Below, piece by piece: positions 7,654 through 36,419 of a stretch of DNA of 64,000 bases. This DNA comes from a virus. The position numbers and the translations under genes are program-made. Numbering within the stretch: position 1 is the first letter of the stretch; every line of letters starts with the position of its first letter. The notes below the pieces were generated by a model, which searched no databases, was not told the origin of the DNA, and saw only the letters and a program-made list of their open reading frames with translations. The stretch lies in the IMG/VR virus record IMGVR_UViG_3300021420_000001, positions 47,481 to 111,480 of that record; one strand, given 5' to 3'.

Positions 7654-7886
7654 GCGCTATTTCCATTCCTCGCGTAACCTTTAGCAACCAGAACTTGCGC
7701 AATATGCGCAAATTTCTGGCGCGTCACCGACATTGCATCCTTCCAAGCGTCGTCAAACATCTTCCCAGCCAGTTCCGGGGAATAAGCCATAACGCCTGAC
7801 TCGCCAAAGTCCCAGATAAAATCCGCTTCAGCTATATCTCGCGCGAGTTCAGCTATATCTCGCGCGAGTTTCTCTATATCAGACAT
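7650..7886 (-). CDS. hypothetical protein
   Basis: coupled ORF containing a 7-aa tandem duplication. Confidence 0.5.
   Translation of the reverse strand: MSDIEKLARDIAELARDIAEADFIWDFGESGVMAYSPELAGKMFDDAWKDAMSVTRQKFAHIAQVLVAKGYARNGNSA
7827..7868. repeat. perfect 21-bp tandem duplication (TTCAGCTATATCTCGCGCGAG x2)
   Basis: read directly; encodes LARDIAE-LARDIAE in frame. Confidence 0.95.
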
Positions 7887-8775
7887 GTAAGCCTGCCTTG
7901 GTCAGAACCTTGCCCCAAAAAACTTCAGGACTATGTTCTGTAACCATCTTCTTGTGGAACTTCTCGGCCACAGCCTTTATCGCAAAGTCTGGTACGTCTC
8001 GGTTCAGGTTCAAGATATCTTCAAGGGAATCATACTCGATGTAATCTTCGCCTGGACTGAACCATTTGTTGAGCGGCGAATTACGAACCTCTAGTACAGC
8101 AGAGCCAGCAAAACCTGCCTCGATCACGCGACCCTTGACGTGAAGATGAGCGCCCGTACCTGTCTCTGCGCAATTCAGCGTCAGCTTAGTCTGATCCATG
8201 ATCTGAGCGAAGTCGTTATAGGAACGTCCAACTGGACCCTGACGGAAGTCGATTAAGCTGCGTGACTGAAGCTCCCGGATCAGTTTATCGCGATGCCCAG
8301 TACCGCCAATCATCCCAAGCTTGATAGTGCGTTGGTCCCAAGGCAGAGGATTGAACGAGCGCGGGTCTGTGGGCGTTAGGAGTGTGATGCCCTCAGCGAA
8401 AGAAGCAATCGGCGTTTCAAAGCTGCCGTCGATTGCCACCATCGTCGTAAAGCATTCTTTTGCATGATACTCCTCAAGGACCGGCCACCAGGGATAGTCC
8501 GCTGCGTCACCACAAATGAGAATAAGCGGCGCTACGGCTCGCAATCGTTGCAGGGTGGGAGGACTGGGAACCGGGCGTCCGTGGGAAGGCTCGTAAGCAC
8601 CCACGTAAACCATGAAATCAGGCTTGGAAACTCTTGCAAGCTCGATGAGCTCGTCATGACGATCATGAGGGCGATCATCGTACTGAGCAACTTGAACTTC
8701 ATGTCCTATAGCCTCTAGCGAACGCCAGAAGGGTTCGCAATTGCTGGTATGAGTGACGAATACAAGTACCCTCAT
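7879..8775 (-). CDS. glycosyltransferase (CgeB/Glyco_trans_1_2-like), paralog A
   Basis: HVKGRVIEAGFAGS..LE...WFSPGEDYIEY motif; paralog of 9730-10629. Confidence 0.8.
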   Translation of the reverse strand: MRVLVFVTHTSNCEPFWRSLEAIGHEVQVAQYDDRPHDRHDELIELARVSKPDFMVYVGAYEPSHGRPVPSPPTLQRLRAVAPLILICGDAADYPWWPVLEEYHAKECFTTMVAIDGSFETPIASFAEGITLLTPTDPRSFNPLPWDQRTIKLGMIGGTGHRDKLIRELQSRSLIDFRQGPVGRSYNDFAQIMDQTKLTLNCAETGTGAHLHVKGRVIEAGFAGSAVLEVRNSPLNKWFSPGEDYIEYDSLEDILNLNRDVPDFAIKAVAEKFHKKMVTEHSPEVFWGKVLTKAGLHV

Positions 8776-9729: not shown

Positions 9730-10629
9730 TTACGATCGCCCCAAAGCCTTTGTCAGTACCCGCTGCCAGAATAAAAGCGGGTGGTGCCGCGTGAACACCT
9801 TACAATGGAACCTAGCCGCCATCTGCCGTAAATGATCATCGTCCGTGATTTCGACAATCTGAGCAGCTTCCTCGGCGTTATCGAACTCCAAATAGTCAAC
9901 GCCAGGCTCGAACCAGTTCTTGGTCGGGGAACCGCGCTTCTCCAAAAGGACTGAACCTGCAAAGCCGGTCTCCACAACCCGACCCTTGACATGCATACTC
10001 TGAGTCGAACCCGTGATCCCGTAATTGTACGTGATCTTGGTATTACACATGATCGCACCCATCTCATCGTAGGTACGACCAATAGGACCTTGCCGAAAGT
10101 CAATAAGACCCTTCTGTTGGAGAGCCTCGGTCGTGGCCTTACGCTCTGAGTGGCCTAAGCCACCAACCATACCGAGCTTGATTGTCTTCTGCTCCCAAGG
10201 GACGGGCTTGAAGGAGCGCCAATCAATCGGCGTCAGCTCCAGCATCCCATTCTCGAAGCGGTCAATGGGTGTTCCAGGAGCGCCATCGATACTTACCTGG
10301 ACCGTGAAGCACTTTTCCTTTTCGTAGACTTCTAGCATCGGCCACCAAGGCGGGTCTCCGGCGTCGTCACACATGTGCACCATTGGTGCCACAGAGTTGA
10401 GGGCACGAAGAACGTCTGGCTGGGGCACGGGACGACCATGATATTGTTCGATGGCCCCGATAAATAGAATGAAATCCGGACGCCAAGATCTAGCGGTATC
10501 CACGAGTTCGTGGTGCTGTTCATGCGGGCGGTTGTCATATTGCTGCGTGAAGACTTCGTGTCCGATAGACTGAAGGGAACGGTATTTATTTTCGCAGTCC
10601 GTGTAAGTTATCAGGCACAAAACTCTCAT
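9730..10629 (-). CDS. glycosyltransferase (CgeB/Glyco_trans_1_2-like), paralog B
   Basis: HVKGRVVETGFAGS..LE...WFEPGVDYLEF; aligns end to end with 7879-8775. Confidence 0.8.
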   Translation of the reverse strand: MRVLCLITYTDCENKYRSLQSIGHEVFTQQYDNRPHEQHHELVDTARSWRPDFILFIGAIEQYHGRPVPQPDVLRALNSVAPMVHMCDDAGDPPWWPMLEVYEKEKCFTVQVSIDGAPGTPIDRFENGMLELTPIDWRSFKPVPWEQKTIKLGMVGGLGHSERKATTEALQQKGLIDFRQGPIGRTYDEMGAIMCNTKITYNYGITGSTQSMHVKGRVVETGFAGSVLLEKRGSPTKNWFEPGVDYLEFDNAEEAAQIVEITDDDHLRQMAARFHCKVFTRHHPLLFWQRVLTKALGRS

Positions 10630-10817: not shown

Positions 10818-11027
10818 CTATTCCTTCCTCTCAATGTACTTGGCCGGACCCTGCTTCAACCGTTCCGCCCTGGACATACGCACGCGCTTGGTATTCTTCA
10901 GAGCATTACGACGATAGCCCCGATAAGTGGAAGCAGCGCGAGGCGGTTTGCGCTTAGGCGGAGCCTGAACGACGACACGACCTGGAATGTAGCGTTCGAT
11001 CACGGCAACCAATCCTTCAACATCCAA
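10818..11027 (-). CDS. small basic hypothetical protein
   Basis: short Arg/Lys-rich ORF abutting the next gene. Confidence 0.4.
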   Translation of the reverse strand: MDVEGLVAVIERYIPGRVVVQAPPKRKPPRAASTYRGYRRNALKNTKRVRMSRAERLKQGPAKYIERKE

Positions 11028-11118
11028 GCCAAACTAAATCCAACACCAAATGCCCCACAAGACATCAGCAGTGGCGCGTAACGATCACGATTCGACATTT
11101 GCCCCCAACGAGTACGAA

Positions 11119-20589: not shown

Positions 20590-21687
20590 TTATACGCCCA
20601 AGAGGCCTGCGACTGCGGCGGGAACCTTAATTATCGCGCCCCAGGTACCACCAGTGACCTTCTGACGATAGGACGAAATCTCACGAATGATAGGGTGCGC
20701 ACGCATCTTTTCGTTGAAGGCGCAGTAGCCGGTCGTCTGACCTTCAAGTGCGGGTGCGAACAACTGGACGAAGTTGCCGGCTGCGATGCCTTGTGGGTTG
20801 GACGCAGTCGTGACCGCGTACTGGATCGCCGTCTTGATCTCGATCTTCGGGAAGTTCTTCTTCAACAGGTCATGCACGTTGACGTTGAAGGTATTGGTCG
20901 CGGTCAAGGCGACTTCCGACTGCGGGGACATCGCCAGGATCAACTTGTCCTCGGCAGAGACCAGACCGTTGGTCTGTTGGACCAGCTGAAAAAAGAGCGA
21001 CTGAATGTCGGTGAAGACCTCGTTCGCTGTGGCCTGGACCACACCGCCAGAAATCCACTTCGTACCGCCGTACGCCTTGGAAGCCGGTGAGATGGAAGCC
21101 GGCAGCGCCGGATCATTCAGCAGGCCGTAATTCTGAAGTCCACCCACACCAAAGAAGTAGGTGAAGTTCAGGAACTTGCCCATGACGGTCGCAGCGGCCT
21201 GATCCTTCTCGGACACCCAGTTGAGCTTGGCGAGGCCCATACGTGCCAGTTCGAGTTCACCGTACTCCTTGACGCCCTGGAACAGATAGGCCTGACGGTT
21301 CGGAAAGTCGGTGTTGACGCCGATCTCACCGTTGCCGGAGTAGTCGCCATAGCTGGAGACTTCACCCGTATGCTCGACGACCGGGAAGATTCTGGTCTGG
21401 TCGAGCCAGGTGCCGGCTCTCCGTTCCCCGAAGATTTCCGCCGCCTTGTTGGGCGTAAAGAGAATACGCACGACTTCCGGATCGATGGAGGTCGTAAGCA
21501 GCGCCGGAATACCGGCATTGGGATCGGTCGTCAGCGTCGGCTGGGCGTCCATTGCGAGGCCCCAATTGTGGCGCCACTCATCCGGGAGATACTGCCGGAC
21601 TTCTGCTCCAGGCTCGAACGAGATGCCTCGAGCCTCAAGGTGAGGACGGTCAGCCCGCCACTGCGTGATGGCTTCTTGCAAATTCAT
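20590..21687 (-). CDS. major capsid protein (DUF2184 family)
   Basis: LAMDAQP.L.T..NAGIP, YGELEL, YFFGV.GLQNYGLLNDP, GGTWGAII. Confidence 0.92.
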   Translation of the reverse strand: MNLQEAITQWRADRPHLEARGISFEPGAEVRQYLPDEWRHNWGLAMDAQPTLTTDPNAGIPALLTTSIDPEVVRILFTPNKAAEIFGERRAGTWLDQTRIFPVVEHTGEVSSYGDYSGNGEIGVNTDFPNRQAYLFQGVKEYGELELARMGLAKLNWVSEKDQAAATVMGKFLNFTYFFGVGGLQNYGLLNDPALPASISPASKAYGGTKWISGGVVQATANEVFTDIQSLFFQLVQQTNGLVSAEDKLILAMSPQSEVALTATNTFNVNVHDLLKKNFPKIEIKTAIQYAVTTASNPQGIAAGNFVQLFAPALEGQTTGYCAFNEKMRAHPIIREISSYRQKVTGGTWGAIIKVPAAVAGLLGV

Positions 21688-23028: not shown

Positions 23029-24189
23029 CTAGGCGAATCCGATCTTCGCGGCGTCCGGATACCGCTTATTGAAGTCCGAAACCGAGGACGAATCCATCCC
23101 CAGGCTATCATCCTGGGCCTGCTGGCGTTGCTTACCGGGCTGGGGAATACGCTCCAAGATGACTTTGAAGGCCGAAGGATGTACGCCCTTCGTATCCACG
23201 CCAAGCGCCGTCAGGGCCGTCTTGTAAACACCCTCGGCAGAGTCATGGGCCATGGCGAGGTCACCAACCCAGGGCCGCACGAAGCGTTCGGCATCGCGGG
23301 TTGCCTTGGTGGCTTCCCGCATATCGGCGATCTTCTTGTCGGCGCTATCGTTCGCCACCTTGACGGCACGCGCGATAGCCGCGTGCACCTGATCTCCAGA
23401 CATCTTGCCTCCTACTTCCGGCTTGCCTTTGAACGGCGGAGGCTCATCCTTCGCCTTCTTGTCCTTCGCCTTGGCGAACTTGGCCCCATCCTCCTCATCG
23501 ACCTCGTCCTCACCTTCCTCGGCGGCCTTCTCGGAGCCGAGTTTGGACTTGGGGACGCCCTCAGGCTCGTTCTCCTGATCTTCGCCTTCCTCGGCCTTGG
23601 GGCCGAAACCGGCGGCGTCGACGGCGCCCGCGATATCATCCTCGGACATGCCCTTACTGGACAGATAGCCCTTCAGCTTCTCGCCGGGATCCTCATCCAT
23701 GGTCTCGTCTTCGTCCTCCTCCGACATCTCTGCCTTCATCGGCATGCCGGAATTGGGGTCAGTTTCGAGAGCATCAGCGTCACCATGCTCCAGGGACTCG
23801 ACCTTCTCCAGGCCGTCCAGGAGTTCGACGAGACCATCAACGGAAGCGTCCTTGGCGAGCCTGCCCTTGGTCTGCTCCTTGATGCCGGCGACGATAGCAC
23901 CCTTCTTGCTGGCAAAGTTCTTGTGCGTCACGCTACCGAGGATTTTACCCCAGTCAAGCGGTTTGGCATCCTTCGCCATCTTCGGCTTCAGCCAGGTCAT
24001 CAGAGCCCCCTGAGCCGTAGCAGCCTTACGAGTCAAAATTCTCTTCGTGCTCATGTTGAGCTCCTTCTGGTTTAATTTACTATCGCCGACTACGGCGGAT
24101 TTCAACAAAGATGCATCCAGCCCGAGAGCTTCAACAGCAGCCTCAGGCGTCTTATACTTTCTCTTCAATGCCTCAGTCAATTTTGACAT
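23029..24189 (-). CDS. capsid scaffolding protein
   Basis: acidic/charged, VRPWVG.L.MAHDSAE.VY..AL..LGV...GVHPSA motif; lies between protease and decoration genes. Confidence 0.75.
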   Translation of the reverse strand: MSKLTEALKRKYKTPEAAVEALGLDASLLKSAVVGDSKLNQKELNMSTKRILTRKAATAQGALMTWLKPKMAKDAKPLDWGKILGSVTHKNFASKKGAIVAGIKEQTKGRLAKDASVDGLVELLDGLEKVESLEHGDADALETDPNSGMPMKAEMSEEDEDETMDEDPGEKLKGYLSSKGMSEDDIAGAVDAAGFGPKAEEGEDQENEPEGVPKSKLGSEKAAEEGEDEVDEEDGAKFAKAKDKKAKDEPPPFKGKPEVGGKMSGDQVHAAIARAVKVANDSADKKIADMREATKATRDAERFVRPWVGDLAMAHDSAEGVYKTALTALGVDTKGVHPSAFKVILERIPQPGKQRQQAQDDSLGMDSSSVSDFNKRYPDAAKIGFA

Positions 24190-24198
24190 TTGAAATCC

Positions 24199-26631
24199 TC
24201 AAACTCGGGCAACCTTCATCGAGTCATCCATGCCGAGCTTTCGGACGGCATCCTCGATTGCAGCCCAACGGAGTTCTTCCGGAACCTTATCACCAATCCT
24301 AACGTCAGTACCAGCGCGACCCTCTTGGCAAACAGCAAGATGATTTGCGATGATGTCCACCATCTTCCCATCGTAAGGTACGCCCTTATACTCGCCCGGC
24401 TCCATTAGGGCCTTGTATCTGTAACCACAGCTCAGTTCGCGTTTCTCCCCCGACTTGATTGCGTCAATATCGTCCTGAGACCAAATGACCAATGAATTAC
24501 GCAAATAAGGATCATCAAACTCTGCATCTGTACCCGTAGCACCAATCACTTCATCTGGTTGATGATCATCCGCCGAAACTGGGATGTGCTCACGTAGAAC
24601 CGGGATGCCGTTGAAGGTGGGGGCGGCTTTAGCGAGTTCGTCCGGGTCGCGCAGGAGTTGATACACCTTGTCAGGGTCCAATTTGAGCGTACCGTCCTCG
24701 TCCGGTATCTCTTTGCCCAAGTACGGGCAAACGTTGGCCTTACTAATATTCGCAACAGTTACATGCAATCGACCATCAGCATCGTACTCACGCACGGACT
24801 TATCGAGGGCAAGTACCAGCTTATCGTCAGAGGCCCGAATGCTTCTATCTAGCGCGGCCCACTTGGCTTCGTCCTGTACCACCTTAGTATCTTCAGCACC
24901 ACTTTCCTTCAATACATCTACGCCATCAATCTTTGCAGACCAAATCTTGTCGGCCCCATCTCCATCGAAATTTGACTTGAACGGGTTCTCGTCCTCCTCG
25001 ACGACTACATTTCGAGAAGACCCTTGCGCCCCCAACCGCCAGATAGAACGTAGAAACCCAGCCATGTTGAAATCGCCATCGTACTCGATCTCAACCTTAT
25101 GCTCAGGTTCCTGCTTACTGTCCATCGTGACTTCAAGATCACCATGGTGGTGCGGAATAGGCTTGACGTCAGCATCCTTGGGTGGATTGCGTGGCGTCAG
25201 CTTCTCGATCCTGGACTCTTGACCACGGAACCAGGCGCAGAGCGCATCCCAATCAATGCCTTGTTCCTTACAATATTGTCGTTCGCTGGGCGTTCCAGCG
25301 GCATTGTGGGACTGAAGATAGATTTGCTTCTTTTCTTCGGTCTTGGGCTTACGTCCATGCTCTTCTTCGAACTTCTCAATGCGCGTTCGAATCTCGTCCA
25401 GTTCCGGTACTTCATGATGGACTAGGTCTTCGACAACATCGACAATCTTGCCATTGATCTCTACAGTCTCCGGCAGGTTGCGATTGACGTACATGGTCTC
25501 GCCGTCTTTCGACATGCAAGAGACCCAAGGACCATCATGAGTGTGGTCAATCTTTACGGCGTAGGTATTCTTGGGCGTGAAAAGCTTGCACCAACCGTTC
25601 GGATCGATAGGGTCCTCAACGAGTTGGCAGTGCGAAATACCACCTTCCTTGAAATCGTATTTGCAGATCGAGCAGTGAGACTCTGGCTTGCCGTTGCCGT
25701 AATCGACTTCTTGTTGAGAGAGCTTGGCGTCATAGGCTTCACAATCTTTGGCCTGCTTCGCCGCCTTTTTAGCTTCTCGATACGCAACGGCTTCAGCATT
25801 TTGGCGCTTAGTAAGATTGAATTCCTGCAAATCGTAAGGATAAACAGCGATAACTTTTCCAGACGAATCAACAACCTCGTACTTTCCAGGGGAAAATTTA
25901 ACAGTTGCGGCATCCTCCGCATGCTCGTCTTCCTGTTCCTCCTCGGACAGGAACTTCATCAGCCCGTCTTTGAGTCCAGCCCAATCCTCAGGCGTCATAT
26001 CTTCACCCGCCTCGGAACCAAGTTTGGTCTTAAGCGTCTTGGCTACAGCGGGATGAAGAGGTTGCGGCAACTGGTCCAAACTCGACCAGCAAAACCCACT
26101 ATGCTCACCGTTCAGCTTAGGGACGAACTTGGCCGCTACAGGCTGAGCAAACGTATGGAACGCCATTCCTGTCGGAGTCGTAACCTTGTCCAGCAGCTTT
26201 TTCTCGCCGCTGGGCTTGCCGCCAATTTCCTCACGTGACTCGCGGTCAGCGGCTTGTTCTGGGGTCTCACCCTCCTCGGCATTACCACCAGGGAGCGCCC
26301 AATGGCCCGCGTAGTTCTCTTCCTGGGAACCACGACGGAGAAGTAGGACCTCGCCATCAGGTGCGACAAATAGTATACCAGCGGCAATACCACCCTCGTT
26401 AGATTCTTCGTCCTTACCCTGTGCAGCACGACGCTTTGCCTCAAGCCGCGTCTTCTTCTCCCACTCTTTCCATTTACGCTCGCCCTCAGTTTCTGGCAAG
26501 TCGTAACGCCCCTTCATCTGCTCGCGAGACTTAAGCGCCTCGCTCTCATCTTTACGATAGCCCTTGTAAGGTTGCTTCTCGCGCTTGGGGGCGTCTTCAG
26601 CGAGACTCTTGGGTACATAGCGTTCTACCAC
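24199..26631 (-). CDS. DUF2213 prohead protease with N-terminal Nudix, HiPIP-like and zincin-like modules
   Basis: C-terminal ISKANVCPYLGKEIP...ELSCGYRY...NHLAVCQEGRAG (DUF2213); Nudix box PGGNAEEGETPEQAADRESREEIG; GTG start with AGGAGG. Confidence 0.88.
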   Translation of the reverse strand: MVERYVPKSLAEDAPKREKQPYKGYRKDESEALKSREQMKGRYDLPETEGERKWKEWEKKTRLEAKRRAAQGKDEESNEGGIAAGILFVAPDGEVLLLRRGSQEENYAGHWALPGGNAEEGETPEQAADRESREEIGGKPSGEKKLLDKVTTPTGMAFHTFAQPVAAKFVPKLNGEHSGFCWSSLDQLPQPLHPAVAKTLKTKLGSEAGEDMTPEDWAGLKDGLMKFLSEEEQEDEHAEDAATVKFSPGKYEVVDSSGKVIAVYPYDLQEFNLTKRQNAEAVAYREAKKAAKQAKDCEAYDAKLSQQEVDYGNGKPESHCSICKYDFKEGGISHCQLVEDPIDPNGWCKLFTPKNTYAVKIDHTHDGPWVSCMSKDGETMYVNRNLPETVEINGKIVDVVEDLVHHEVPELDEIRTRIEKFEEEHGRKPKTEEKKQIYLQSHNAAGTPSERQYCKEQGIDWDALCAWFRGQESRIEKLTPRNPPKDADVKPIPHHHGDLEVTMDSKQEPEHKVEIEYDGDFNMAGFLRSIWRLGAQGSSRNVVVEEDENPFKSNFDGDGADKIWSAKIDGVDVLKESGAEDTKVVQDEAKWAALDRSIRASDDKLVLALDKSVREYDADGRLHVTVANISKANVCPYLGKEIPDEDGTLKLDPDKVYQLLRDPDELAKAAPTFNGIPVLREHIPVSADDHQPDEVIGATGTDAEFDDPYLRNSLVIWSQDDIDAIKSGEKRELSCGYRYKALMEPGEYKGVPYDGKMVDIIANHLAVCQEGRAGTDVRIGDKVPEELRWAAIEDAVRKLGMDDSMKVARV

Positions 26632-26745
26632 AAGAGCCTCCTTAGATGCTCCGCCCGCTGACTAGGGGCGACGTGAGAGTCAGCGGGCGGAGGCCCTCAG
26701 CCCCAAGGATCGAATGCTGGGGAGCATCCTTGGGCGGAGATCGCT

Positions 26746-27555
26746 TTAGAACAGGATCTTGCCGAAGACTTCGTACTTGCGGCCAGAGGTCAGACTCCCG
26801 AAGACCGGAGCACCAGCGCCAAAGCCGGTGATACCTACGCCCTTGTCCGCGAAGACAACCTGAGCACCGACATCCAGAACACCGCCCGTGAGCTTGCCAG
26901 TCGTATCGACGATCTGGTTCATGACGCCAGCGCCCACGAGCGCGGCAATACCAACGCCATTACTACTGGCGCCAGCAAATCCCGCATTGAAACCCCACTC
27001 TTCGATTCCGGCCATCAGGTAAGGATGGCCGTTAGGAAGAATGGTAATGCCCGGAATGGTGGGCGCCGTCGGCAGGGTCGGGAAACCCCCAAAACCAAGA
27101 TTGCCGATCAGCGCCAGCGGGTTGAAGCCGTAGACCTTTACGACCTGGTCGGCACTCCATCGGGTAGCGAATGAAGCCGGAGCAACCGTACCATTTGCTC
27201 CAACCGCAGGGGCGGATGCCGTCACATTACTCCAGTAGCCATTGCCCTCGAAGGCGACCGCTTGCGCGCTTCCGGAAGCATTGACGCCCATGCTGCGCAT
27301 ATAGCCGAACGTAAGGCCCAGGCTTCCACCAAGGGCATTCGCATTCCCGGTGGCGAGCGAAGATGCAAGAAAAGTGCCAGAGGCGCTGTCCTGCTCGACG
27401 CCGCCCTTACTGGCAAAGCCCCAGTAAGGACCAGAGCCATTGTACGGGAATGCGAGAAGGTTGGATGCCGGCGCCTTCACTAGCATATCAGCCGCCTGAG
27501 CCGAGGTAGCGATTGCTGCCACAGCCAGGATAGATACAAACAAAGATTTGTACAT
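26746..27555 (-). CDS. Omp25/RopB-like outer-membrane beta-barrel protein
   Basis: signal peptide ending AQA-ADMLVKAP (rhizobial Omp25-type N-terminus), GPYWG, terminal Phe. Confidence 0.7.
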   Translation of the reverse strand: MYKSLFVSILAVAAIATSAQAADMLVKAPASNLLAFPYNGSGPYWGFASKGGVEQDSASGTFLASSLATGNANALGGSLGLTFGYMRSMGVNASGSAQAVAFEGNGYWSNVTASAPAVGANGTVAPASFATRWSADQVVKVYGFNPLALIGNLGFGGFPTLPTAPTIPGITILPNGHPYLMAGIEEWGFNAGFAGASSNGVGIAALVGAGVMNQIVDTTGKLTGGVLDVGAQVVFADKGVGITGFGAGAPVFGSLTSGRKYEVFGKILF

Positions 27556-27797
27556 GTTACGATCCCCACTTTGTACAGAGCCTATTGAACAGGGACAGGC
27601 CCCTGTAGTCCCCCCTTCATGACGACTTGGATTCTCTTTTCCCCGAATCCAAATTCGCCTCACTGAACAATCTTATTCGTGCAAGAGTAACTGTTTACAA
27701 ACATCGCAGCATTGCTCTTCGGGGCATGTAGCTAGTGGCTTAATCGGCCAAGGGTTATTGCCATACCCGGAATAGGGTTGCTGACAAATTACGCAAA

Positions 27798-28136
27798 TCA
27801 TTTTACCTTTACCTTGTCAAGTAACGCAATATGCTTTGCCCCCAACCGTGGAGACAACTGTCGATCCAGATACTTGGAAATGATAATGCCTGTCGCCTCA
27901 AATTTCTCGCGCAGATACTTACTACGCCCATGAGAAGCCTGACTGGCGTAATGCTCACCACCCAACAGCGCATTCTCTTTTGCCAAATCTTCGGCGTCAG
28001 CGTCATCAAGCTTCTGAAGCTTCTCTTCCTCCAAATCAGATAGGAGGATTTGCACTTCAGGAATGACGACCTCTTTGGTCCTAATTTCCTGACCGTGATG
28101 CTCAACTTCTTCCACGCGAAATACAAATTTCAACAT
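27798..28136 (-). CDS. hypothetical protein
   Basis: ORF abutting the upstream gene. Confidence 0.55.
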   Translation of the reverse strand: MLKFVFRVEEVEHHGQEIRTKEVVIPEVQILLSDLEEEKLQKLDDADAEDLAKENALLGGEHYASQASHGRSKYLREKFEATGIIISKYLDRQLSPRLGAKHIALLDKVKVK

Positions 28137-28523
28137 TTACGCAACCTTTCGGGTAACGAAGTCTCGATTGATCTGATCCTTGCCATGCACCTTGATCAAC
28201 CGTTGCAGATAAGGATCACCATCTGGTACACGGAAGACGTAGAACCCGCTGATGATTGGTTCGCCATCAGCAGAAATCTTCTCTCGTGCGAACGTATTAT
28301 TGTTCATCTTGGCACGTGGGTTGGGCTTACCTTCCTGATCACGTAGATGATTGACCCAACGCGCCTGACAGGCCGACACGGAACGGCCTGGAATTACGTC
28401 GGCAATATCGCACCAGGGAAGGCATTTATGTACGAAAGCGCGCAAGAGCGCGTCTTCCTTGTCGGACCAACCCTGACAAGATCGGCCGGTGCCTGTATAT
28501 CCGCGTCCGAAAGGAGAAGTCAT
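28137..28523 (-). CDS. Myb/SANT-domain DNA-binding protein
   Basis: WSDKEDALL...W.DIA.VIPGRS...C..RW.NHL matches the three-Trp Myb repeat. Confidence 0.75.
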   Translation of the reverse strand: MTSPFGRGYTGTGRSCQGWSDKEDALLRAFVHKCLPWCDIADVIPGRSVSACQARWVNHLRDQEGKPNPRAKMNNNTFAREKISADGEPIISGFYVFRVPDGDPYLQRLIKVHGKDQINRDFVTRKVA

Positions 28524-28765
28524 TGCAAACCTTTTTCGGGTCTGAAAAGTTCTTCATGGTAGGAAACAAAAGGCTCGTCAATTTCCTTTACTTGAAACAG
28601 ATGACCATCGAACCAATCCCAGATACCACTAATTGTGTAGACCTTACCGCATTCCGGCCAAGGGTATTCAGAAATTGGTGCGGCAATAGAGGCATCAGGG
28701 TGACGCTGATCGCAAACAAGATCGCGTGTTCTGACGCAAACGACCTTTTGCCCAACATACCACAT
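28520..28765 (-). CDS. hypothetical protein
   Basis: VGQKVVCV...GKVYTI...FRP pattern common in alphaproteobacterial phages. Confidence 0.6.
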   Translation of the reverse strand: MWYVGQKVVCVRTRDLVCDQRHPDASIAAPISEYPWPECGKVYTISGIWDWFDGHLFQVKEIDEPFVSYHEELFRPEKGLQ

Positions 28766-29832
28766 TACGAGAATCCTGCGACAACCGATCTACTTACGCA
28801 GCGGCAGTTTACCTCAGTGCCGGGGAAGATGTATTTTTTTACAGCTGGGTCCCACCATCCCTTAACAATATCATACGGCTTGCCATTTTGGCGCACATGA
28901 GTCGGTCTTGGATGTTTTCCAGCCCCAGAATGAACCCAGATCGCAGTCGTAATTCCAAGCTCCAATTGCCGCGCTCTGGTAATATTTGCAGTAATCTTGT
29001 TCGATTGATCCCGACTAATCAACTCAGCCCTTTTACGAGTGGTGTGAAATTGCCTCTGCAAATCAGTCGTCAGCTGGTGCAGGTCACGCCCCGTCTGCAC
29101 GGATCGCATGACCATACCCTCGATCTGGGTAAAGTATTGGGATGGGATGCTTTTGATGAGGCTGACGTTCTCTTGGATCGATGCGGCCAAGATGTCACGC
29201 TGCGCCTTTGTCATCTGCATCTCGACAGTCCAGCCCCCCTTCTTGAGGATTGACTGCAACTGTTTCGTAGAACGCTGATGGACCTTGAGTGAGAACCATT
29301 TGGCAAGATCAAGAGAGGCTTCGTTAAAGCCTTTCTGCCATCTACGAGAGAGTTTGCGGATTGCTCTACGTAGTTCGATAGCGGGTAGGGCGTCTTGCGC
29401 TAAAGTAGCATTAAGCCGATCGCGCTCTTTCTCAGCTTCACGATAATTACTGCGAGTTGCTACAATCTTACGATCTTTCATTATCCGCCAGTAATGGGCA
29501 ACCAACTCAATGTAATACTTTGACTGAGCATCCTGCGCTAAGGCCGTGACCTCGGGCTCGTTCGCCTTAAATGCCGCCTTGAGCCAATATACCACCGACT
29601 TTTGCATATCATCGATTAGGCACTCAAGCTTGCGACGATATTCGATCTCTAATGCAAAGCTTGGATGCACAGGACGTAAGACGCGGTCTTTTTTAGGCTT
29701 TGCGTCGATCGCGATACGATGTTGCAGAGAACGGAGCTTTTGGTCTTGCGCCTGGATGATCTGCTGGGCTTGTTCCAGCTGCTTACGCAGAACTTGATTG
29801 TCAATTTTGGACTTAGCGGAAACGGGAAGCAT
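28765..29832 (-). CDS. head morphogenesis protein (Mu F / SPP1 gp7-like)
   Basis: ENVSLIKSIP, RAELISRDQSNK, WVHSG....RPTH, PGTEVNCRC. Confidence 0.88.
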   Translation of the reverse strand: MLPVSAKSKIDNQVLRKQLEQAQQIIQAQDQKLRSLQHRIAIDAKPKKDRVLRPVHPSFALEIEYRRKLECLIDDMQKSVVYWLKAAFKANEPEVTALAQDAQSKYYIELVAHYWRIMKDRKIVATRSNYREAEKERDRLNATLAQDALPAIELRRAIRKLSRRWQKGFNEASLDLAKWFSLKVHQRSTKQLQSILKKGGWTVEMQMTKAQRDILAASIQENVSLIKSIPSQYFTQIEGMVMRSVQTGRDLHQLTTDLQRQFHTTRKRAELISRDQSNKITANITRARQLELGITTAIWVHSGAGKHPRPTHVRQNGKPYDIVKGWWDPAVKKYIFPGTEVNCRCVSRSVVAGFS

Positions 29833-29835
29833 ATA

Positions 29836-30786
29836 TCAATCGTAAATATTAGGAGCGGCTTTACCAGTCAATTCTCGGTAAGTTTTCGCCCAACGCTCGT
29901 AGGCATCCTTTGTATTTTGCCCATAACTACCGTAACGATTTTCACCTTGTTTGAAAGTGTTGCGCAATCTTGACATAGCTCCCAAAGCTTCTTGAACACG
30001 CTTTTGATCAGCAGGCCCAGCAACATCTTTACCTTTCTTTGGGGGCTTGTTCCCATACTTTGTATTTGTCAAATCATCGGTGGGACCAGAGCCTGGCGCT
30101 CTAGTATCAGTTGGTCTTGCATTCCTGCTAGCAGGCTTCCCCTGAGCCGCTTTTGCGGCAGCCGTCAAAGGCTCAGGCTTGGTATACACCACGTTAGCCT
30201 TCTCGATGTCCATGCCCTCAAACATACCATCCATCGCATATTCGATATAGTCCAAAGCCTCCTGCTTCACCCCAAACATGCGCGGACCGCCAGGACCATT
30301 AGCGAACCAGCGACCAGAGTCCAGCGCCATACCTTCCAACAAGACGAAGTCACCAATCCGGTCTACGATCTGCGCTTGACAGTCTGGCAATGAATCACAG
30401 GCGAACCGGAGGGGCATTTGATCTTTTGCTCCTACGGTGAGAAGACCACGAGAGGCATCCATCGCTTCCTCCTCGTCTCCCCGTGCCTTAATCGGCCCGC
30501 TCACCTGACCATGAGCAACAACTCCTTCCGACTTGTAACCAGGGTTTTCCTTCTCTGCTGTGTTTACCGCCTCTTGTCTAGAAGAGGCTCTGAGACGAAC
30601 TCCACGTCGACGCCCACCTTCTCCCACTAGATTGACTTGCCACTCCATATCTGCGTCCTCAGCCTCATCCCCGCGTGCCTTACTATACGCAATTGCCGCT
30701 GCCTGCTTCGGGTCCTTGCCGGCGTTGATCTCAGTGCCGATATTGCTACTGATGGTCTCTTTGCTGGAACCTGATTTCAGCGGCAT
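29836..30786 (-). CDS. putative internal head polyprotein
   Basis: MPLKSGSSKETISSNI..EI.AGK.PKQA.AIAYSKA N-terminus typical of head-region proteins; many [A/G]-x-D motifs. Confidence 0.7.
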   Translation of the reverse strand: MPLKSGSSKETISSNIGTEINAGKDPKQAAAIAYSKARGDEAEDADMEWQVNLVGEGGRRRGVRLRASSRQEAVNTAEKENPGYKSEGVVAHGQVSGPIKARGDEEEAMDASRGLLTVGAKDQMPLRFACDSLPDCQAQIVDRIGDFVLLEGMALDSGRWFANGPGGPRMFGVKQEALDYIEYAMDGMFEGMDIEKANVVYTKPEPLTAAAKAAQGKPASRNARPTDTRAPGSGPTDDLTNTKYGNKPPKKGKDVAGPADQKRVQEALGAMSRLRNTFKQGENRYGSYGQNTKDAYERWAKTYRELTGKAAPNIYD

Positions 30787-30798
30787 CAGCGTTTCTCC

Positions 30799-31218
30799 TC
30801 AGGCAGTCGGTGAATTCGGCGGCATCGGGTGGGGGGCGTGGTCTTCAGTCTTGGCTGCTTGACCATTTACAGAAGTCCCTGCAGCCGAAGACTTCTTATC
30901 CTGAAAGGCAGCATCCATGACTGCAGCAGCGTTACCGAATGCAGGCAAGGCAGCATCGAGAGCCTTGCGCCGCTCGTCGATTGCAGCAACGCCCGCCATG
31001 AACCGCCTGAATGAGATTTCATATGCGTCGAGGACAGGACCAGCAATCTGGTCTCCTTGAGCAGTATCCTCCATTAGTTTACCAGCACGCTCAGCGTGAG
31101 CTGTAATCCGGTCAATGGCTGATGGCGTGGTCATTTGTACTGTCCTGTTACGGTCTGCTTCAATCCAGAGCGTGAGCAAGCGGTCGAATTGCCTCGGAGC
31201 AGAGAGCCATGAATTCAC
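30799..31218 (-). CDS. hypothetical protein
   Basis: co-oriented ORF; start uncertain. Confidence 0.5.
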   Translation of the reverse strand: MNSWLSAPRQFDRLLTLWIEADRNRTVQMTTPSAIDRITAHAERAGKLMEDTAQGDQIAGPVLDAYEISFRRFMAGVAAIDERRKALDAALPAFGNAAAVMDAAFQDKKSSAAGTSVNGQAAKTEDHAPHPMPPNSPTA

Positions 31219-31487
31219 ATCGCGCCGCCACCTTCAAACCTGTATGGAAAGCCTAGCCGATTCCGAAGCCACGTCCAATTCCATATGGGCTGAGACGTGC
31301 CGCCTATTTTGCGGTCGCCTAAGAGCGGCCACGCTACCCCCCAATTTTGCAAAGCAAATTGCCACAGCATCCAGCCTCGGTAGCCGCGTGGCCTATGCGC
31401 GTCGATGAATGGACGCCATGACTTTACGAACGGCGCTAGACCAAACTTGTGGCCCCATAACCATTCGACAAAAGTCAGCGCACTCAT
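31215..31487 (-). CDS. Trp-rich hypothetical protein
   Basis: ATGA overlap with the portal stop. Confidence 0.45.
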   Translation of the reverse strand: MSALTFVEWLWGHKFGLAPFVKSWRPFIDAHRPRGYRGWMLWQFALQNWGVAWPLLGDRKIGGTSQPIWNWTWLRNRLGFPYRFEGGGAM

Positions 31488-33265
31488 TCCGCAGCCTCGC
31501 TTGGCAAAAGCTTCTTCAGCTTAGTCATACGCTCAGCCCGCTCGGGATGGGGCTTAGGCTGGCTGTGCATCAACCTTACCAGCTTACCCGTCCGGGCCGT
31601 GCGATGGCTCATATCGGGTTCGGACCCATCTAGATCGGGTTCTAAGCCCCCTAGAGCGTCTTCGGACCCATCCTCAGGATTTTCCCCCTCATCCCGTTCG
31701 GACGCGCCTGCGACCGTTTCTGCGGGTTCCTCGCCCTCTCCTAGCTCGGCCTTGACCCCACCACCGCCACCCTTGGGTATGAGGCCGGCTTCGATCTCGC
31801 CCTTGAGGTCAGGCATCGTAGTCTTATCCAAGCCCTGGTAGGGCGATTCGGCATCATCGGCGAGACGGATACGGACCTCTTCCTGACTGATGACACCCAT
31901 ATCAACGTAGATCTGATCGGTACGGGCCTGGACCTCGCCGACCTCAGAATGTTCTTTCTCATCCATAGACCAGAGCGGCTCGAAGGCGAACGTAATGGCA
32001 GGATCAACTTGGCCCCAGAGGTCTAGCATCGTGAAATGCATCAGACGTGTCAGGTTCTTACGAAGAAAGGTTTCCTGCCGATCATGGATGGTGTCGTAGA
32101 ATGCCCTGATCTCGCCTTCGGAGCTCGCATTCAGTCCCGTCGGCTGCAAACCCGTGAACTTGACAGCCGGGATGCGCGCTACCGACATCATGTGTTCTTG
32201 GGCTTGGGCCTGTAAGGCATCGAGCGTACCAAGAGGCGCAACAGTATTTGTGAACTCCTCGGTGTCCTTGTCGGTCAACATGATGCCGCGATTGTCGCGG
32301 AACCGATTGAAGAGTTCTGCTCGCTTGAAGAGTAGGTCACCACCCTCCATCAGGGACTCAGCTAAGTTTGTCTTCAAACCCCAAACGACGAAGGCGTGGA
32401 TCAGGTCATTGACGGATTGCCGGGTTATCAGCCAGTTATCTACGTAGGGCTTCATGATCTGACTGAGTGACAGACCACCAAAGCTATACGCAGGCTTCAG
32501 GATGTCGGGAACTTCACGTCCTACGAAAGTAAGGAAGCGGGAAACATGCAACTCTTTACCCATTACGAACCAGTGTTGGGGGTTGTACCAATCTGGTGCC
32601 AAAGGATCATTGGAGTTGTAATTGGTCGGGTAGGCCCAGATGGCCTCTACGGTCGTAAGACGTTTCAGTGATCCACGCTTGACCTTGGCCCGACTGATCT
32701 TGTTCTGACCATCACCAATCGGCATGCGGAGTTCGTTAGCATCATCCTTGGAACCAAAATCCAGATGTAGATGGGATCGACCGAAGTAACCATCCTGCTC
32801 GATCAGAGTACGGCAACGATCCTGGACTTCGAGTTCCTTCCACTTGTCCTCGAGTTCCTTGATCTCCTTACCCTTGTCTGCCTTACCGACAGCTTCGAAC
32901 TTGATCCATTTACGGCACATCTCACCGGCTATTGTTTCGACCGGGATGCGATATTCAGGTCTCTGAGCGAGCTGCGCGAGATAAGGATAGCCTAGGAACT
33001 GTAGGCCTTCATGGAACGATTGCCCAATAACAGATGAAGCCCAAGAGAAATCGCTATTGAAGCCGGAGTTGTCATCCATCGCCATCTTTGCGGCTTTGAC
33101 AGCGCGCATGAGGCGGGGCGGATGGGCCGGGAACTGGAAAGTCTGGACGGATTGTGATGCATTACGTGACGGACCGGCTCTGGCTATGGCCTGATCGTAG
33201 GCAAAGCTCAAGTCCTGACGAGTGGGCTTAGCCTTCTTGCGCTTAGGGATGTAACGGGCGACCAT
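31484..33265 (-). CDS. portal protein (DUF1073 family)
   Basis: FLGYPYLAQLAQRPEYR, KPAYSFGGLSL, P.GLNASSEGEIR.FYD, F.FEPLW; lies between TerL and MuF. Confidence 0.9.
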   Translation of the reverse strand: MVARYIPKRKKAKPTRQDLSFAYDQAIARAGPSRNASQSVQTFQFPAHPPRLMRAVKAAKMAMDDNSGFNSDFSWASSVIGQSFHEGLQFLGYPYLAQLAQRPEYRIPVETIAGEMCRKWIKFEAVGKADKGKEIKELEDKWKELEVQDRCRTLIEQDGYFGRSHLHLDFGSKDDANELRMPIGDGQNKISRAKVKRGSLKRLTTVEAIWAYPTNYNSNDPLAPDWYNPQHWFVMGKELHVSRFLTFVGREVPDILKPAYSFGGLSLSQIMKPYVDNWLITRQSVNDLIHAFVVWGLKTNLAESLMEGGDLLFKRAELFNRFRDNRGIMLTDKDTEEFTNTVAPLGTLDALQAQAQEHMMSVARIPAVKFTGLQPTGLNASSEGEIRAFYDTIHDRQETFLRKNLTRLMHFTMLDLWGQVDPAITFAFEPLWSMDEKEHSEVGEVQARTDQIYVDMGVISQEEVRIRLADDAESPYQGLDKTTMPDLKGEIEAGLIPKGGGGGVKAELGEGEEPAETVAGASERDEGENPEDGSEDALGGLEPDLDGSEPDMSHRTARTGKLVRLMHSQPKPHPERAERMTKLKKLLPSEAAE

Positions 33266-33730
33266 TTAACGTTGCCAAGAAGACCCAGTTGCTTCCCAAG
33301 GACCATATTTCTTGTGCTCAGGGTCTGCGTTAACCTGATTTTCAACTTGTTTACGAATTCCGTTTTCCTGCGCAGTACTTCGTGGCCCTGACGTTCGCAT
33401 TGAAACTGTTAAACGCTTTCCATCTTTTGCTTTAAGCGAAATTTGCAAACTATGTTCTTCAGCATCTGTTGAAGGCTTCGGCTTTGGAGGAGGTTTACCT
33501 TGCCCATACTTCGTATTTGTCAAATCCTCGATAGGCCCAGAACCAGGGGCTCTAGTATCTAGAGGTCTTGCATCCAACGCTATTCCCTTAACCTCACTCC
33601 GCGCAATCCCCACATCCATTGCCATCCGGCCCGCGTAAGCGACGGCTTCCTGCTGCGTCACGAACTGAATAGAGCGCGAGCCACCATGCTTGAATTCGAG
33701 ATCGACGGTGAACCAATTATCATCACTCAT
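33266..33730 (-). CDS. putative internal head protein
   Basis: shares ARPxDTRAPGSGPxxDLTNTKYG with 29836-30786; contains AMD/ALD motifs. Confidence 0.6.
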   Translation of the reverse strand: MSDDNWFTVDLEFKHGGSRSIQFVTQQEAVAYAGRMAMDVGIARSEVKGIALDARPLDTRAPGSGPIEDLTNTKYGQGKPPPKPKPSTDAEEHSLQISLKAKDGKRLTVSMRTSGPRSTAQENGIRKQVENQVNADPEHKKYGPWEATGSSWQR

Positions 33731-34557: not shown

Positions 34558-34761
34558 CTATTTCTGAGAAGAAGGTTTCCGCACCCAAGCACCTTGCCAA
34601 TTGGCCCCTTCCTCCAACCGCAGGAAACCTATTGCATCAGCGGTGGGACCAGAAGATTTCTGCGCCTGAAGGCGGGGCGTGACATAGCCAGACAAAGGTA
34701 TACGCCAGACCGGCATTGGAGTCTTCTTGGAAATCTGATTACGCGTAGGACGTTTATTCAT
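34558..34761 (-). CDS. hypothetical protein
   Basis: ATGA overlap with the TerL stop. Confidence 0.4.
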   Translation of the reverse strand: MNKRPTRNQISKKTPMPVWRIPLSGYVTPRLQAQKSSGPTADAIGFLRLEEGANWQGAWVRKPSSQK

Positions 34762-36419
34762 ATCCTTGCCAATACTTGATCAGAGATTCGCATGACGGCC
34801 TTAGGTGGAACAGGCCAGTAGCACATGACGACGGAATCAGCCAAATTAGGGGATTTGGAACCATCAGGCTGCTTGTTGACCAGTAGCTTCAGCTTCGAAG
34901 ACTGACCCATCGTAGGCTGGCTCAATTCTTTCTGCAGCTTACGTATAAGCGGTATGCGCGAATCGAAACTGATCAATTCCTCGACCTTGTAGGTAAACCC
35001 GAGCTCGGTACGGGCTCTATGGGTCTGCTCGCAACATCGCGCCAACTGCCACCAGGCTTGCGCCTTCAGGTTCTGGTAGAAGTCCGAGTTGATCGGAGAA
35101 TCCTTGTCCCTCGGAATGACGTTCTTGTCGGGATAGAGAACCTCGGCGCCAGCGTTCCACGGACAGAGGCGGATATTCCTGGGCATGAAGCCTTCGGCAC
35201 TTAGGCGATTGCCCTCTGATTTGACGTTGGTACCTACACCTATAACATCGTACTGAAGATTGATCGGACCTAACCCCTTACAGGCGGCTATGGCACGACG
35301 CGCCGTGACGCCGGGGTCTGGTGCACCCCACTCATCCAGGGTTCTAAGAACCCTACCTTTGCGTAACGCCAAAGCGTTGGTATCACCACCCTCGTCAGCT
35401 ACGTCAAGAGCACCGCACCACAGCCCATCGTCATTGAAACCGGGAATGTGTAGATGGGCATCGACGCAGGAGTCGAACCATTCCGGCTTGATGATGACCC
35501 CGACAACCGAGGCCCCATAATTACGATCGACCTCTTGCGCGAAGATATGCTCCAAGCCCTCGGCTACCGCCTTGGACTTACGTCCATCGTACCACTCCTG
35601 GGTCTTACCCGGATGGTCGCGCCAGTCCATGACGAAGACGTTGACGCGGTCTTTGTGGATTGATTGACCGGGAGCCCAATCTACTCCAGATTCTCTTTTA
35701 CGGTGGAAGACCGTTCCCATTCCGTAGACGGAACTGAAGTCAATCTGCACTTTGGCGTTGTCGGAGAGTGCCGCCTCGATCAGCTCAGGTCTTTCGTACT
35801 TTGCAGCCTCATCCTTGAAGTAGATAAGTGAGCGACCGCCTCGTCCGATTTCATCACCGGACTCACCTGTAATGGCCCCGCCACCACTCGGGTTGATGAT
35901 CTTCAGGGAGCCCATATGGTCGCGTAAATTGAATCCGGGTGGGTAGAATTCTACGGGCAGACGTTCGATAGCCCTACGAATCTTCTCGAAGATCGAGTTC
36001 ATGTCGCCGATACGATCGACGAGGTCAGATTTGCGGGAGCCCCACCCGATCGCAGCACCGTCCCAGAACCGCCAGAGATGGATGGAGATCGCGCAGCAGA
36101 GCCAGGTGACCCCCATGTCCCTGGATTTCTCGATGAGCCCAGAGCCCCCTTCTTTCAGGCAGGCATAAATGAAGTTGACGGCTTCGCGCTGACGCTTGAA
36201 GAGTTTGAATGGGAGATACGTAAGCTGATCCGTGCCCGCATTGCGGGGATCGTAAGTGTCAATCCAATGCTCGATGAATTCTACTGGATGATCTTTGTAG
36301 TACTCAATTGCACCGGCTAAGAGTCGTGGCTCCTTGCGAAGGCGTATGAGCTGCTCTTGGCGCCAGGCAAAATGCTTTGTGTAATTAGGTGGCCAGGGAA
36401 CTATACGCTGGAGCATCAC
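34758..36419 (-). CDS. terL: terminase large subunit
   Basis: EKSRDMGVTW Walker A variant, IGRGGR..IYFKDEAA Walker B, ALDVADEGGD nuclease, KSPNLADS. Confidence 0.93.
   Translation of the reverse strand: MMLQRIVPWPPNYTKHFAWRQEQLIRLRKEPRLLAGAIEYYKDHPVEFIEHWIDTYDPRNAGTDQLTYLPFKLFKRQREAVNFIYACLKEGGSGLIEKSRDMGVTWLCCAISIHLWRFWDGAAIGWGSRKSDLVDRIGDMNSIFEKIRRAIERLPVEFYPPGFNLRDHMGSLKIINPSGGGAITGESGDEIGRGGRSLIYFKDEAAKYERPELIEAALSDNAKVQIDFSSVYGMGTVFHRKRESGVDWAPGQSIHKDRVNVFVMDWRDHPGKTQEWYDGRKSKAVAEGLEHIFAQEVDRNYGASVVGVIIKPEWFDSCVDAHLHIPGFNDDGLWCGALDVADEGGDTNALALRKGRVLRTLDEWGAPDPGVTARRAIAACKGLGPINLQYDVIGVGTNVKSEGNRLSAEGFMPRNIRLCPWNAGAEVLYPDKNVIPRDKDSPINSDFYQNLKAQAWWQLARCCEQTHRARTELGFTYKVEELISFDSRIPLIRKLQKELSQPTMGQSSKLKLLVNKQPDGSKSPNLADSVVMCYWPVPPKAVMRISDQVLARI

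Follow-up and report, generated by a model that had tools for sequence, protein, structure and literature searches.

In phage T4, cargo enters the prohead on a targeting piece and is freed there by the protease; examples are IPI, which is injected and counters restriction, and Alt, an ADP-ribosyltransferase (ART) that is packaged (PMC9026906). The T4 protease gp21 cleaves behind Glu, and the IPIII leader is no longer processed when this residue is Asp (PMC9026906). Protease gp245 of SPN3US has been proven to cut after A-x-E and prefers Val at P4 and Ser at P1′ (PMC10052503). In the polyvalent proteins, Nudix, ART and zincin-like peptidase domains are fused to MuF, portal and other head proteins; these fusions are predicted to be packaged and delivered, with embedded zincin-like peptidases proposed as the chief processing enzymes (Iyer et al. 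2017, PMC5512222). For the DUF2213 protease family no cleavage rule was found described in the literature consulted: among papers on DUF2213, PB1-like phages, T1 and Drexlerviridae none that defines a cleavage site was found, and the Xanthomonas phages for which N-terminal data exist have a different head protease. Here we describe the head genes of an uncultured phage that encodes a DUF2213 protein. The window analyzed is a stretch of 64,000 nt, bases 47481-111480 of the 111,480-bp IMG/VR record IMGVR_UViG_3300021420_000001, which has direct terminal repeats and is rated complete; comparison at the DNA level found no close cultured phage. An initial annotation of positions 24199-33730 had noticed small-x-D motifs recurring in the head proteins and proposed that the DUF2213 protease cuts after these Asp residues, freeing interchangeable mini-proteins inside the capsid. 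Our sequence comparisons suggest that the recurring signal is probably an Asp-specific substrate site of the phage's own DUF2213 prohead protease. The site consensus is a hydrophobic residue, Ala, any residue and Asp, followed mostly by Ala or Ser and at some sites by Asp or Glu. The system is a variant on the head maturation with packaged cargo of T4, phiKZ and SPN3US.

Every gene and motif of the initial annotation was found at its position, all on the minus strand. The loose pattern used there, [AG]xD, was compared with chance protein by protein. The excess was modest: 10 observed versus 5.2 expected in the 316-aa protein, 5 versus 2.1 in MuF, 19 versus 11.4 in the 810-aa Nudix-DUF2213 protein and 13 versus 8.1 in the scaffold-like protein. 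No excess was found in the portal (6 versus 6.4 expected) or the terminase (5 versus 6.0). A sharper motif was obtained from the capsid-protein family, for which 150 representatives were collected and 119 full-length sequences aligned. At the end of the variable N-terminus, which comprises 26-131 non-conserved residues in the relatives, the sequence [L/M/I]-A-x-D-[A/S] is near-invariant. P1 is Asp in 117/118 proteins, P1′ is Ala or Ser in 111/118, P3 is Ala in 88/118 and P4 is Leu, Met or Ile in 77/118; P2 is variable. A position matrix made from 117 capsid relatives, with the window's own protein left out, was used to scan the 102 open reading frames (ORFs) of the window. The proteins expected inside the procapsid gave 25 matches versus 4.7 expected, a five-fold excess, and all remaining ORFs gave 12 versus 16.3 expected, with no match in the terminase or in a 978-aa tail protein. 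The best matches comprise the two MuF sites (14.5 and 13.7 bits), K-M-A-M-D64 of the portal, four sites of the scaffold and others in the 154-aa, 316-aa and 139-aa proteins. The recurrence of small-x-D motifs in the head proteins is real, and lies far above chance once the motif is sharpened; the loose form is only mildly enriched.

The site resembles those of SPN3US gp245 and phiKZ gp175 (S/A/G-x-E) in occurring in many head-interior proteins and in having a small P3 and an acidic P1 residue. In SPN3US and phiKZ the portal and capsid proteins lose N-terminal propeptides that are cut at multiple sites, and the same is predicted for the window. In contrast to the Glu of those phages, P1 is Asp, as in the 117/118 capsid sites, so the window does not belong to the A-x-E class. 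Its protease is also of a different sequence family, DUF2213, and at 111 kb the phage is, unlike SPN3US and phiKZ, not a jumbo phage.

The capsid and portal sites can be compared with cultured Pseudomonas phages. In the portal, A-M-D is invariant in seven relatives, though the surrounding region is only 32-66% identical. Capsid-protein structures are available for E217 (8frs) and Pa193 (9b40), and both proteins are of the same family as that of the window. In both papers the capsid protein was modelled for residues 66-382, and the E217 paper states as a possibility that the first 65 residues are cleaved or disordered. Residues 61-65 of these proteins are S-A-M-D-S, and the density starts at N66, two residues past the conserved Asp64. 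PB1 carries the same code, with SAMD/S in the capsid protein, VAMD/S at the matching place of the portal, FAKD/E in MuF, and RAMD/S, NAQD/A and KAQD/S in the protease-scaffold protein (a slash marks the predicted cleavage point). The PB1-like phages (PB1 gp22/gp24, E217 gp25, Pa193 gp24/gp26) have the same DUF2213, capsid and portal families as the window and the same motif places. Unlike the window, they have protease and scaffold in one protein without Nudix or other N-terminal blocks, and a MuF without an insert. Pa193 gp24 (9b40 chain G), published as a 'putative scaffolding protein', contains the DUF2213 protease domain at residues 3-168. The Pa193 paper calls it a scaffolding protein without mention of a protease and reports that it stays in the virion, the authors being undecided on its cleavage. 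The visible gp24 fragment, residues 286-326, may be a processing product.

The 810-aa protein matches Pfam DUF2213 (PF09979; 4e-47) and NUDIX (3e-19) as well as PHROG 2229, head maturation protease (7e-84). The DUF2213 match scores 160.7 bits against a cut-off of 22 and spans profile positions 1-167 of 167. An AlphaFold2 model of the domain, made from 38 sequences, has a mean predicted local distance difference test score (pLDDT) of 83. Aligned by VIA-align, it matches T4 gp21 (5jbl) with Z 10.2 and a root-mean-square deviation of 3.0 Å over 130 of the 165 gp21 residues, and the varicella-zoster virus protease with Z 8.7; the top 30 Foldseek matches are almost all herpesvirus proteases (assemblins). 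The domain models as the T4 gp21/herpesvirus assemblin fold, and the window protease and gp21 would in this respect be alike. Residues His682, Ser713, Ser734 and His764 are invariant in 38 homologs, in the order His...Ser...His. A search with the domain matched 712 phage records, 152 of them over at least 80% of the query, including PB1-like, Acinetobacter and Klebsiella phages, some of which are used in therapy.

The gene order is portal, MuF, protease, scaffold, minor head protein and capsid, which places the protease between the portal and capsid genes and beside the scaffold gene. The scaffold-like protein matches the C-terminal part of PHROG 2229 and has six matrix sites versus 0.95 expected, and a consensus of 37 protease-scaffold fusions retains these sites. 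Protease and scaffold form one fused protein in most relatives, PB1 and Pa193 among them. In the window they are separate genes in the same frame, with a TGA and 9 nt between them (24187-24201), exactly past KLGMD802/D, with which the 810-aa protein ends. The usual protease-scaffold fusion is split in the window at a conserved protease site.

The 810-aa protein, encoded among the head genes, holds Nudix, at least three further blocks and DUF2213 in one polypeptide. From the N-terminus it consists of a basic stretch, Nudix, a variable module, a Cys4 segment resembling high-potential iron-sulfur proteins (HiPIP-like), an HHE-motif region, a small module and DUF2213. Strict matrix sites are D13, D504 and D802; weaker AxD sites are D240, D296, D301, D581, D595 and D610. 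Across 120 DUF2213 proteins the density of matrix sites per 100 aa is 0.07 in Nudix, 0.33 in DUF2213, where they lie mostly at one conserved spot, 0.91 in the N-side linkers and 1.96 in the scaffold part, with peaks just before the protease domain and 20-70 residues after it. The sites cluster in linkers and scaffold, and folded domains have almost none. Nudix occurs in 51/120 DUF2213 homologs (proteins of 445-1418 aa). In other phages it stands behind a 38-aa leader unit or together with an ART domain, as in protein P0279, which combines ART, Nudix and DUF2213 with the joints AED/A, AKD/S, ALD/A, AED/A, GKD/A and ATD/E. Another homolog, P0278, has a longer module at the place of the variable module, with a sub-threshold match to DUF1508 (E 0.15). 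The Cys segment (25552-25746, minus strand; residues 296-360) contains a C-x2-C...C...GWC arrangement that resembles high-potential iron-sulfur proteins. It matches Pfam HIPIP below threshold (E 0.033), and P0278 gives the same weak match at the corresponding position; the segment is followed by an HHEVPE-motif region.

Like the polyvalent proteins, the window has several unrelated effector-type domains in one head-gene polypeptide, to which homologs add ART. Unlike them, its joints carry a predicted prohead-protease site and no embedded zincin-like peptidase; no HExxH (zincin-like peptidase) domain was found in the window's head proteins. The window has the protease polyprotein as carrier, and its MuF insert is internal rather than at the end of MuF as in the polyvalent fusions.

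MuF belongs to the Phage Mu F-like family PF04233 (44.4 bits versus a cut-off of 29.6) and matches PHROG 324 at 1.5e-71; it has 2408 homologs at E ≤ 1e-10. The duplication of LAQDA around a 46-codon unit, described in the initial annotation, was confirmed at the DNA level as a 14-nt pair spaced 138 nt (46 codons) apart, with three base differences, all of them synonymous. We compared 120 MuF relatives and located the anchors in 81. Inserts are lacking in 65/81, and exactly one matrix site, typically LAQDA before ALPAxELR, is present in 56 of these 65. The other 16/81 bear inserts of 20 to ~260 aa, all at the same spot, and 8/16 have two or more sites, one per end; in the closest clade both sites are present in almost every protein with an insert. 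The inserts of the relatives are mutually unrelated, and many are rich in Gly, Ala, Ser or Pro and look like disordered spacer rather than mini-proteins. Three relatives (P0017, P0018 and P0022) carry in the same slot a zincin-like domain of ~170-260 aa with an HExxH signature and no Pfam name. The window's own insert has no detectable relatives and is modelled by AlphaFold2 as low-confidence helices. The two lowest-confidence stretches of the MuF model, residues 91-100 and 141-150, hold both sites, with pLDDT < 50 at residues 143-149 around site 2. For SPN3US and phiKZ, the literature consulted has no description of sites duplicated around inserts inside MuF, as seen in the window.

The second duplicated site lies in the 316-aa protein, the N-terminus of which is a leader unit that occurs in 60 distinct forms across viral contigs. 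This unit is sometimes a free-standing protein of 45-80 aa, often with a basic tail, and otherwise heads proteins of 175-842 aa in which Nudix, DUF2213 or an ART-like domain comes next. Nearly all of these forms have A-[R/G/K]-x-D and then Ala, Ser or Glu behind the unit. KARGD/E of the window is this leader-unit junction, and the module of the window lies between two copies of it. The duplication of KARGDE around a 64-codon unit likewise held at the DNA level, as a 20-nt pair 192 nt (64 codons) apart with three base differences, all synonymous. Since all six differences among the 33 bases of the two duplicated flanks are synonymous, the copies are kept as protein sequence and are not fresh duplications. 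The combination of a 38-aa leader unit, an Asp site and varied enzymes resembles, from its sequence arrangement, the T4 capsid-targeting sequence. The window cargo would be fused to the protease, to MuF or to the 38-aa unit, whereas T4 cargo is fused to a 10-aa leader. An origin of the inserts from a mobile element or other foreign DNA was considered and rejected: the GC content of the inserts is within the local range, and the flank duplications are not recent, because their copies differ at synonymous sites.

The module of the 316-aa protein has a counterpart in the closest relative, L002, whose portal is 72% identical and whose gene order is the same. It matches the C-terminal module of a 149-aa protein there (51% identity, E 3e-13), which is encoded upstream of the portal gene and is a different head-operon carrier. 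Because the match sits in a different carrier protein, the module moves between carriers. No free-standing relatives of it were found by a word-based protein search and exact-pattern scans of viral contigs, which reach only close relatives. In L002 the homolog of the 154-aa protein differs in module order. Small modules gave only sub-threshold hints in Pfam (DUF2188, DUF5678, HIPIP and DUF1508; for module 1 of the 154-aa protein, DUF2188 at E 0.067) and matched unnamed small viral proteins in the ESM Atlas at lead-level scores. The proposal that several inserts are the same beta-beta-alpha unit fails at the sequence level. The modules of the 316-aa and 154-aa proteins align by BLASTP with E 7.5, the protease module and the MuF insert give no alignment, profile comparison gives a probability of 0.6%, and the MuF insert is modelled as low-confidence helices instead. 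The only significant pair of small modules is that of the 316-aa protein and the L002 149-aa protein.

Comparison with L002 also showed the turnover of blocks at the sites. Its MuF has an unrelated Gly/Ala-rich insert between LAQD/S and LATD/A, and in its homolog of the 316-aa protein the same flanks enclose a module that has diverged strongly. The L002 protease polyprotein is without the window's 56-aa module and has 22 unrelated residues between HAED/ and AHD/AK; it gains a 59-aa block between ALD/ and ARD/SK and ~210 aa between GAED/ and AHD/EAKW. The scaffold gains 64 aa. The edges of the inserted, deleted or replaced blocks were set by an automatic rule, which gave 34 edge-by-sequence cases. 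Of these edges, 18/34 lie at most 4 residues from the Asp of an [AG]xD motif, compared with 7.6 ± 2.4 under the null model, and 18 was reached in 0 of 20,000 random draws. Module boundaries in homologs, which the initial annotation had named as a test of its proposal, were therefore found to coincide with the motif, both in the MuF family and at the L002 edges.

In the process we propose, the protease would cut after Asp at exposed sites once the procapsid has assembled. The cuts would remove ~47 residues from the capsid protein and ~64 from the portal, split MuF at LAQD/A and chop the scaffold into pieces, and they would separate the blocks fused ahead of the protease, namely the basic peptide, Nudix, the small modules and the Cys4/HHE block. 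Sequence lying between two sites, or between a site and the carrier, would be cut free. Because the excised sequence would leave the mature carrier unchanged, the sites would be permissive slots for the gain, loss and exchange of modules. Of the initial claim that DUF2213 cuts after the motif Asp and frees modules, the first part is favored by a motif that behaves like a maturation-protease site in its boundary Asp in capsid and portal, its placement in linkers and scaffold, its duplication around unrelated inserts, and the fold of the protease; we infer the scissile bond, the release of the pieces and their fate. It is plausible that the larger enzymes, such as Nudix, are packaged cargo; for the small inserts, cargo and tolerated spacer are both candidates.

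If the cut after hydrophobic-Ala-x-Asp is true, the mature products of capsid, portal, MuF and scaffold proteins would be predictable from sequence. The rule would also explain missing density in cryo-electron microscopy maps and flag fused enzymes that are probably freed inside the head. The MuF slot, mostly with one site and with two around an insert, would be a way to gain an excisable module with an essential protein undisturbed, and it is a suggested place for engineering packaged cargo, as has been done with the T4 targeting sequence.

Several observations weigh against cleavage at these sites. Strict matches D131, D156 and D186 lie inside a 75-aa conserved stretch of the 316-aa protein, and D39 lies inside a helix of the first module of the 154-aa protein; the matches in conserved stretches are in regions that are probably folded. 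A position in a linker is not required of every motif match. Only three junctions of the 810-aa protein pass the strict matrix, the others being without a hydrophobic P4 or a small P1′ residue. The catalytic triad is predicted from invariant residues and their order in sequence, and a disordered N-terminus would account equally well for the capsid data of E217 and Pa193. For the window phage, and for any DUF2213 phage in the literature consulted, no cut documented by biochemistry or mass spectrometry was found.

One alternative is that the inserts are neutral. The sites would be cut and would act as neutral landing pads, since any sequence between two of them is excised, and the small inserts would be tolerated spacer or propeptide debris that leaves the procapsid with the scaffold fragments, with only large enzymes such as Nudix as cargo. 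We consider this somewhat improbable; it is nevertheless a serious alternative for the small inserts, because many MuF inserts look disordered. Besides the mutually unrelated, Gly/Ala/Ser/Pro-rich inserts of close relatives and the window's own insert, which has no detectable relatives and a low-confidence model, it is favored by SPN3US, in which propeptides generally leave the head (PMC10052503). T4, on the other hand, retains internal proteins of 8-20 kDa in the head (PMC9026906), and some inserts in the MuF slot are clearly folded, enzyme-like HExxH domains. At least the module of the 316-aa protein appears to be under constraint, because it is kept at 51% identity in another carrier. The proposal that the Asp sites serve to load a payload we regard as rather doubtful. 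An insert between duplicated sites (LAQDA in MuF, KARGDE) or behind the 38-aa leader would be carried in, freed, kept and ejected with the DNA, and the cassettes would turn over fast because of an arms race with host defences.

It is unlikely that the motif is left uncut and serves as a short docking or assembly signal, common to head-interior proteins, for the scaffold, the protease or the capsid interior. Such a signal would fit the enrichment seen only in proteins expected inside the procapsid, the copies in conserved, probably folded stretches (D131 and D156 of the 316-aa protein, D39 of the 154-aa protein) and Pa193 gp24, which remains in the virion with its cleavage left undecided by the authors. 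Against it, the motif stands exactly where the capsid density of E217 and Pa193 begins and in the least ordered parts of the MuF model. In addition, inserts are bracketed on both sides, which is not required of a docking signal, and the P4-P3-P1-P1′ pattern is laid out like that of the A-x-E sites determined by experiment in SPN3US. Cleavage by the DUF2213 protease remains the reading we prefer. That the flanks are functionless scars of insertion, by target-site duplication or microhomology recombination, and the other copies chance motifs in Ala/Asp-rich proteins is very improbable and largely refuted. In its favor, both inserts do lie between short direct DNA repeats, and [AG]xD, for which chance predicts about one match in 50-100 residues, is not in excess in portal and terminase. 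Against it, the paired copies differ always synonymously (6/33 bases), many MuF relatives have the duplication around inserts that are unrelated, the inserts do not stand out in base composition, the five-fold excess from an independent matrix is confined to head-interior proteins, and no random draw reproduced the boundary coincidence.

The head-gene block lies entirely on the minus strand, and its features are collected in Table 1.

Table 1. Positions of head genes, predicted sites and modules (window numbering, except for PB1 gp22; a slash marks the predicted cleavage point)
Feature	Position	Strand	Remarks
Terminase	34758-36419	-	two small ORFs next in block order
154-aa protein	33266-33730	-	just upstream of portal
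154-aa protein, module 1	within 33266-33730	-	ends at IALD53/A; matrix matches D39, D53
49-aa segment ..DTRAPGSGP..DLTNTKYG..	29977-30123 and 33428-33574	-	common to 316-aa and 154-aa proteins; 51% identity, E 3e-9
Portal	31484-33265	-	Phage_portal_3; 90-aa and 139-aa proteins next in block order
Portal site K-M-A-M-D64/D	33071-33088	-	between variable 60-aa N-terminus and conserved portal body
139-aa protein	30799-31218	-	three matrix sites D64, D88, D102; L002 homolog 66% identical
316-aa protein	29836-30786	-	head block, between 139-aa protein and MuF
Leader unit, 38-40 aa	30667-30786	-	N-terminus of 316-aa protein; PHROG 2423, 1e-18
Two KARGDE copies and 58-aa module	30472-30681	-	copies 30664-30681 and 30472-30489; module 30490-30663
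MuF	28765-29832	-	then 81-aa, Myb-like, 112-aa and outer-membrane-barrel-like proteins
MuF site 1, A-L-A-Q-D101/A	29527-29544	-	matrix score 14.5
MuF insert, residues 103-142	29407-29526	-	between two LAQDA sites
MuF site 2, T-L-A-Q-D147/A	29389-29406	-	common to all relatives; directly before conserved ALPAxELR
810-aa Nudix...DUF2213 protein	24199-26631	-	Nudix residues 82-199, DUF2213 residues 614-782
Nudix hydrolase domain, residues 82-199	26035-26388	-	N-terminal to protease
Variable module, residues 241-296	25744-25911	-	bounded by HAED240/ and AKD296 / AYD301/AK
DUF2213 protease domain, residues 614-782	24286-24792	-	AlphaFold2 model, core pLDDT > 90
Scaffold-like protein	23029-24189	-	just outside the initially annotated range
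Scaffold-like protein, sites	23029-24189	-	D25, D74, D114, D281, D316 (LAMAHD/SA), D366
Capsid protein	20590-21687	-	AMD/AQP at residues 45-50; outside the initially annotated range; minor head protein precedes
Capsid-protein site G-L-A-M-D47/A	21544-21561	-	end of 47-aa variable N-terminus
PB1 gp22	L095:5172-6569		protease-scaffold protein

Four neighboring gene pairs of the block are in the same frame across a single stop codon: 154-aa protein/portal, 139-aa/316-aa, 316-aa/MuF and protease/scaffold. Stop-codon recoding or read-through across these pairs was considered and rejected. The stops mix TGA and TAA, and TGA also closes genes in ATGA overlaps; the downstream genes all have starts of their own, and a clear GGAG-type ribosome site goes with two of them; and in L002 the gap between protease and scaffold is 150 nt. 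The portal and the protease polyprotein have similar starts, M-V-A-R-Y-I-P-K (33242-33265, minus strand) and M-V-E-R-Y-V-P-K (26608-26631, minus strand), as do their L002 homologs, which may reflect a common N-terminal signal or a common translation-start context.

Two further genes of the block lie between MuF and the protease. A Myb-like DNA-binding protein (28137-28523, minus strand; Pfam 2e-8) is kept in L002. A 305-aa protein (26746-27663, minus strand) with a signal peptide, an AADMLVKAP start and a C-terminal Phe resembles a rhizobial-type outer-membrane beta-barrel, although encoded within the head operon. It gave no Pfam or PHROG match and no protease-site match, and it has a homolog at the same place in L002 with 56% identity. 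L002 itself has an extra 200-aa ORF (L002 20675-21277, plus strand) between the scaffold and minor head genes, which has no counterpart in the window and no Pfam match; by eye it resembles a small homing-endonuclease-like insert. Elsewhere in the window, a small ORF (10821-11033, minus strand) matches the basic N-terminal stretch of the 810-aa protein over 45 residues (36% identity, E 3.5e-4). Downstream of the tail genes, two paralogous genes (7879-8775 and 9730-10629, minus strand) lie 1 kb apart and encode proteins of ~298 aa each that are 51% identical (E 1e-113).

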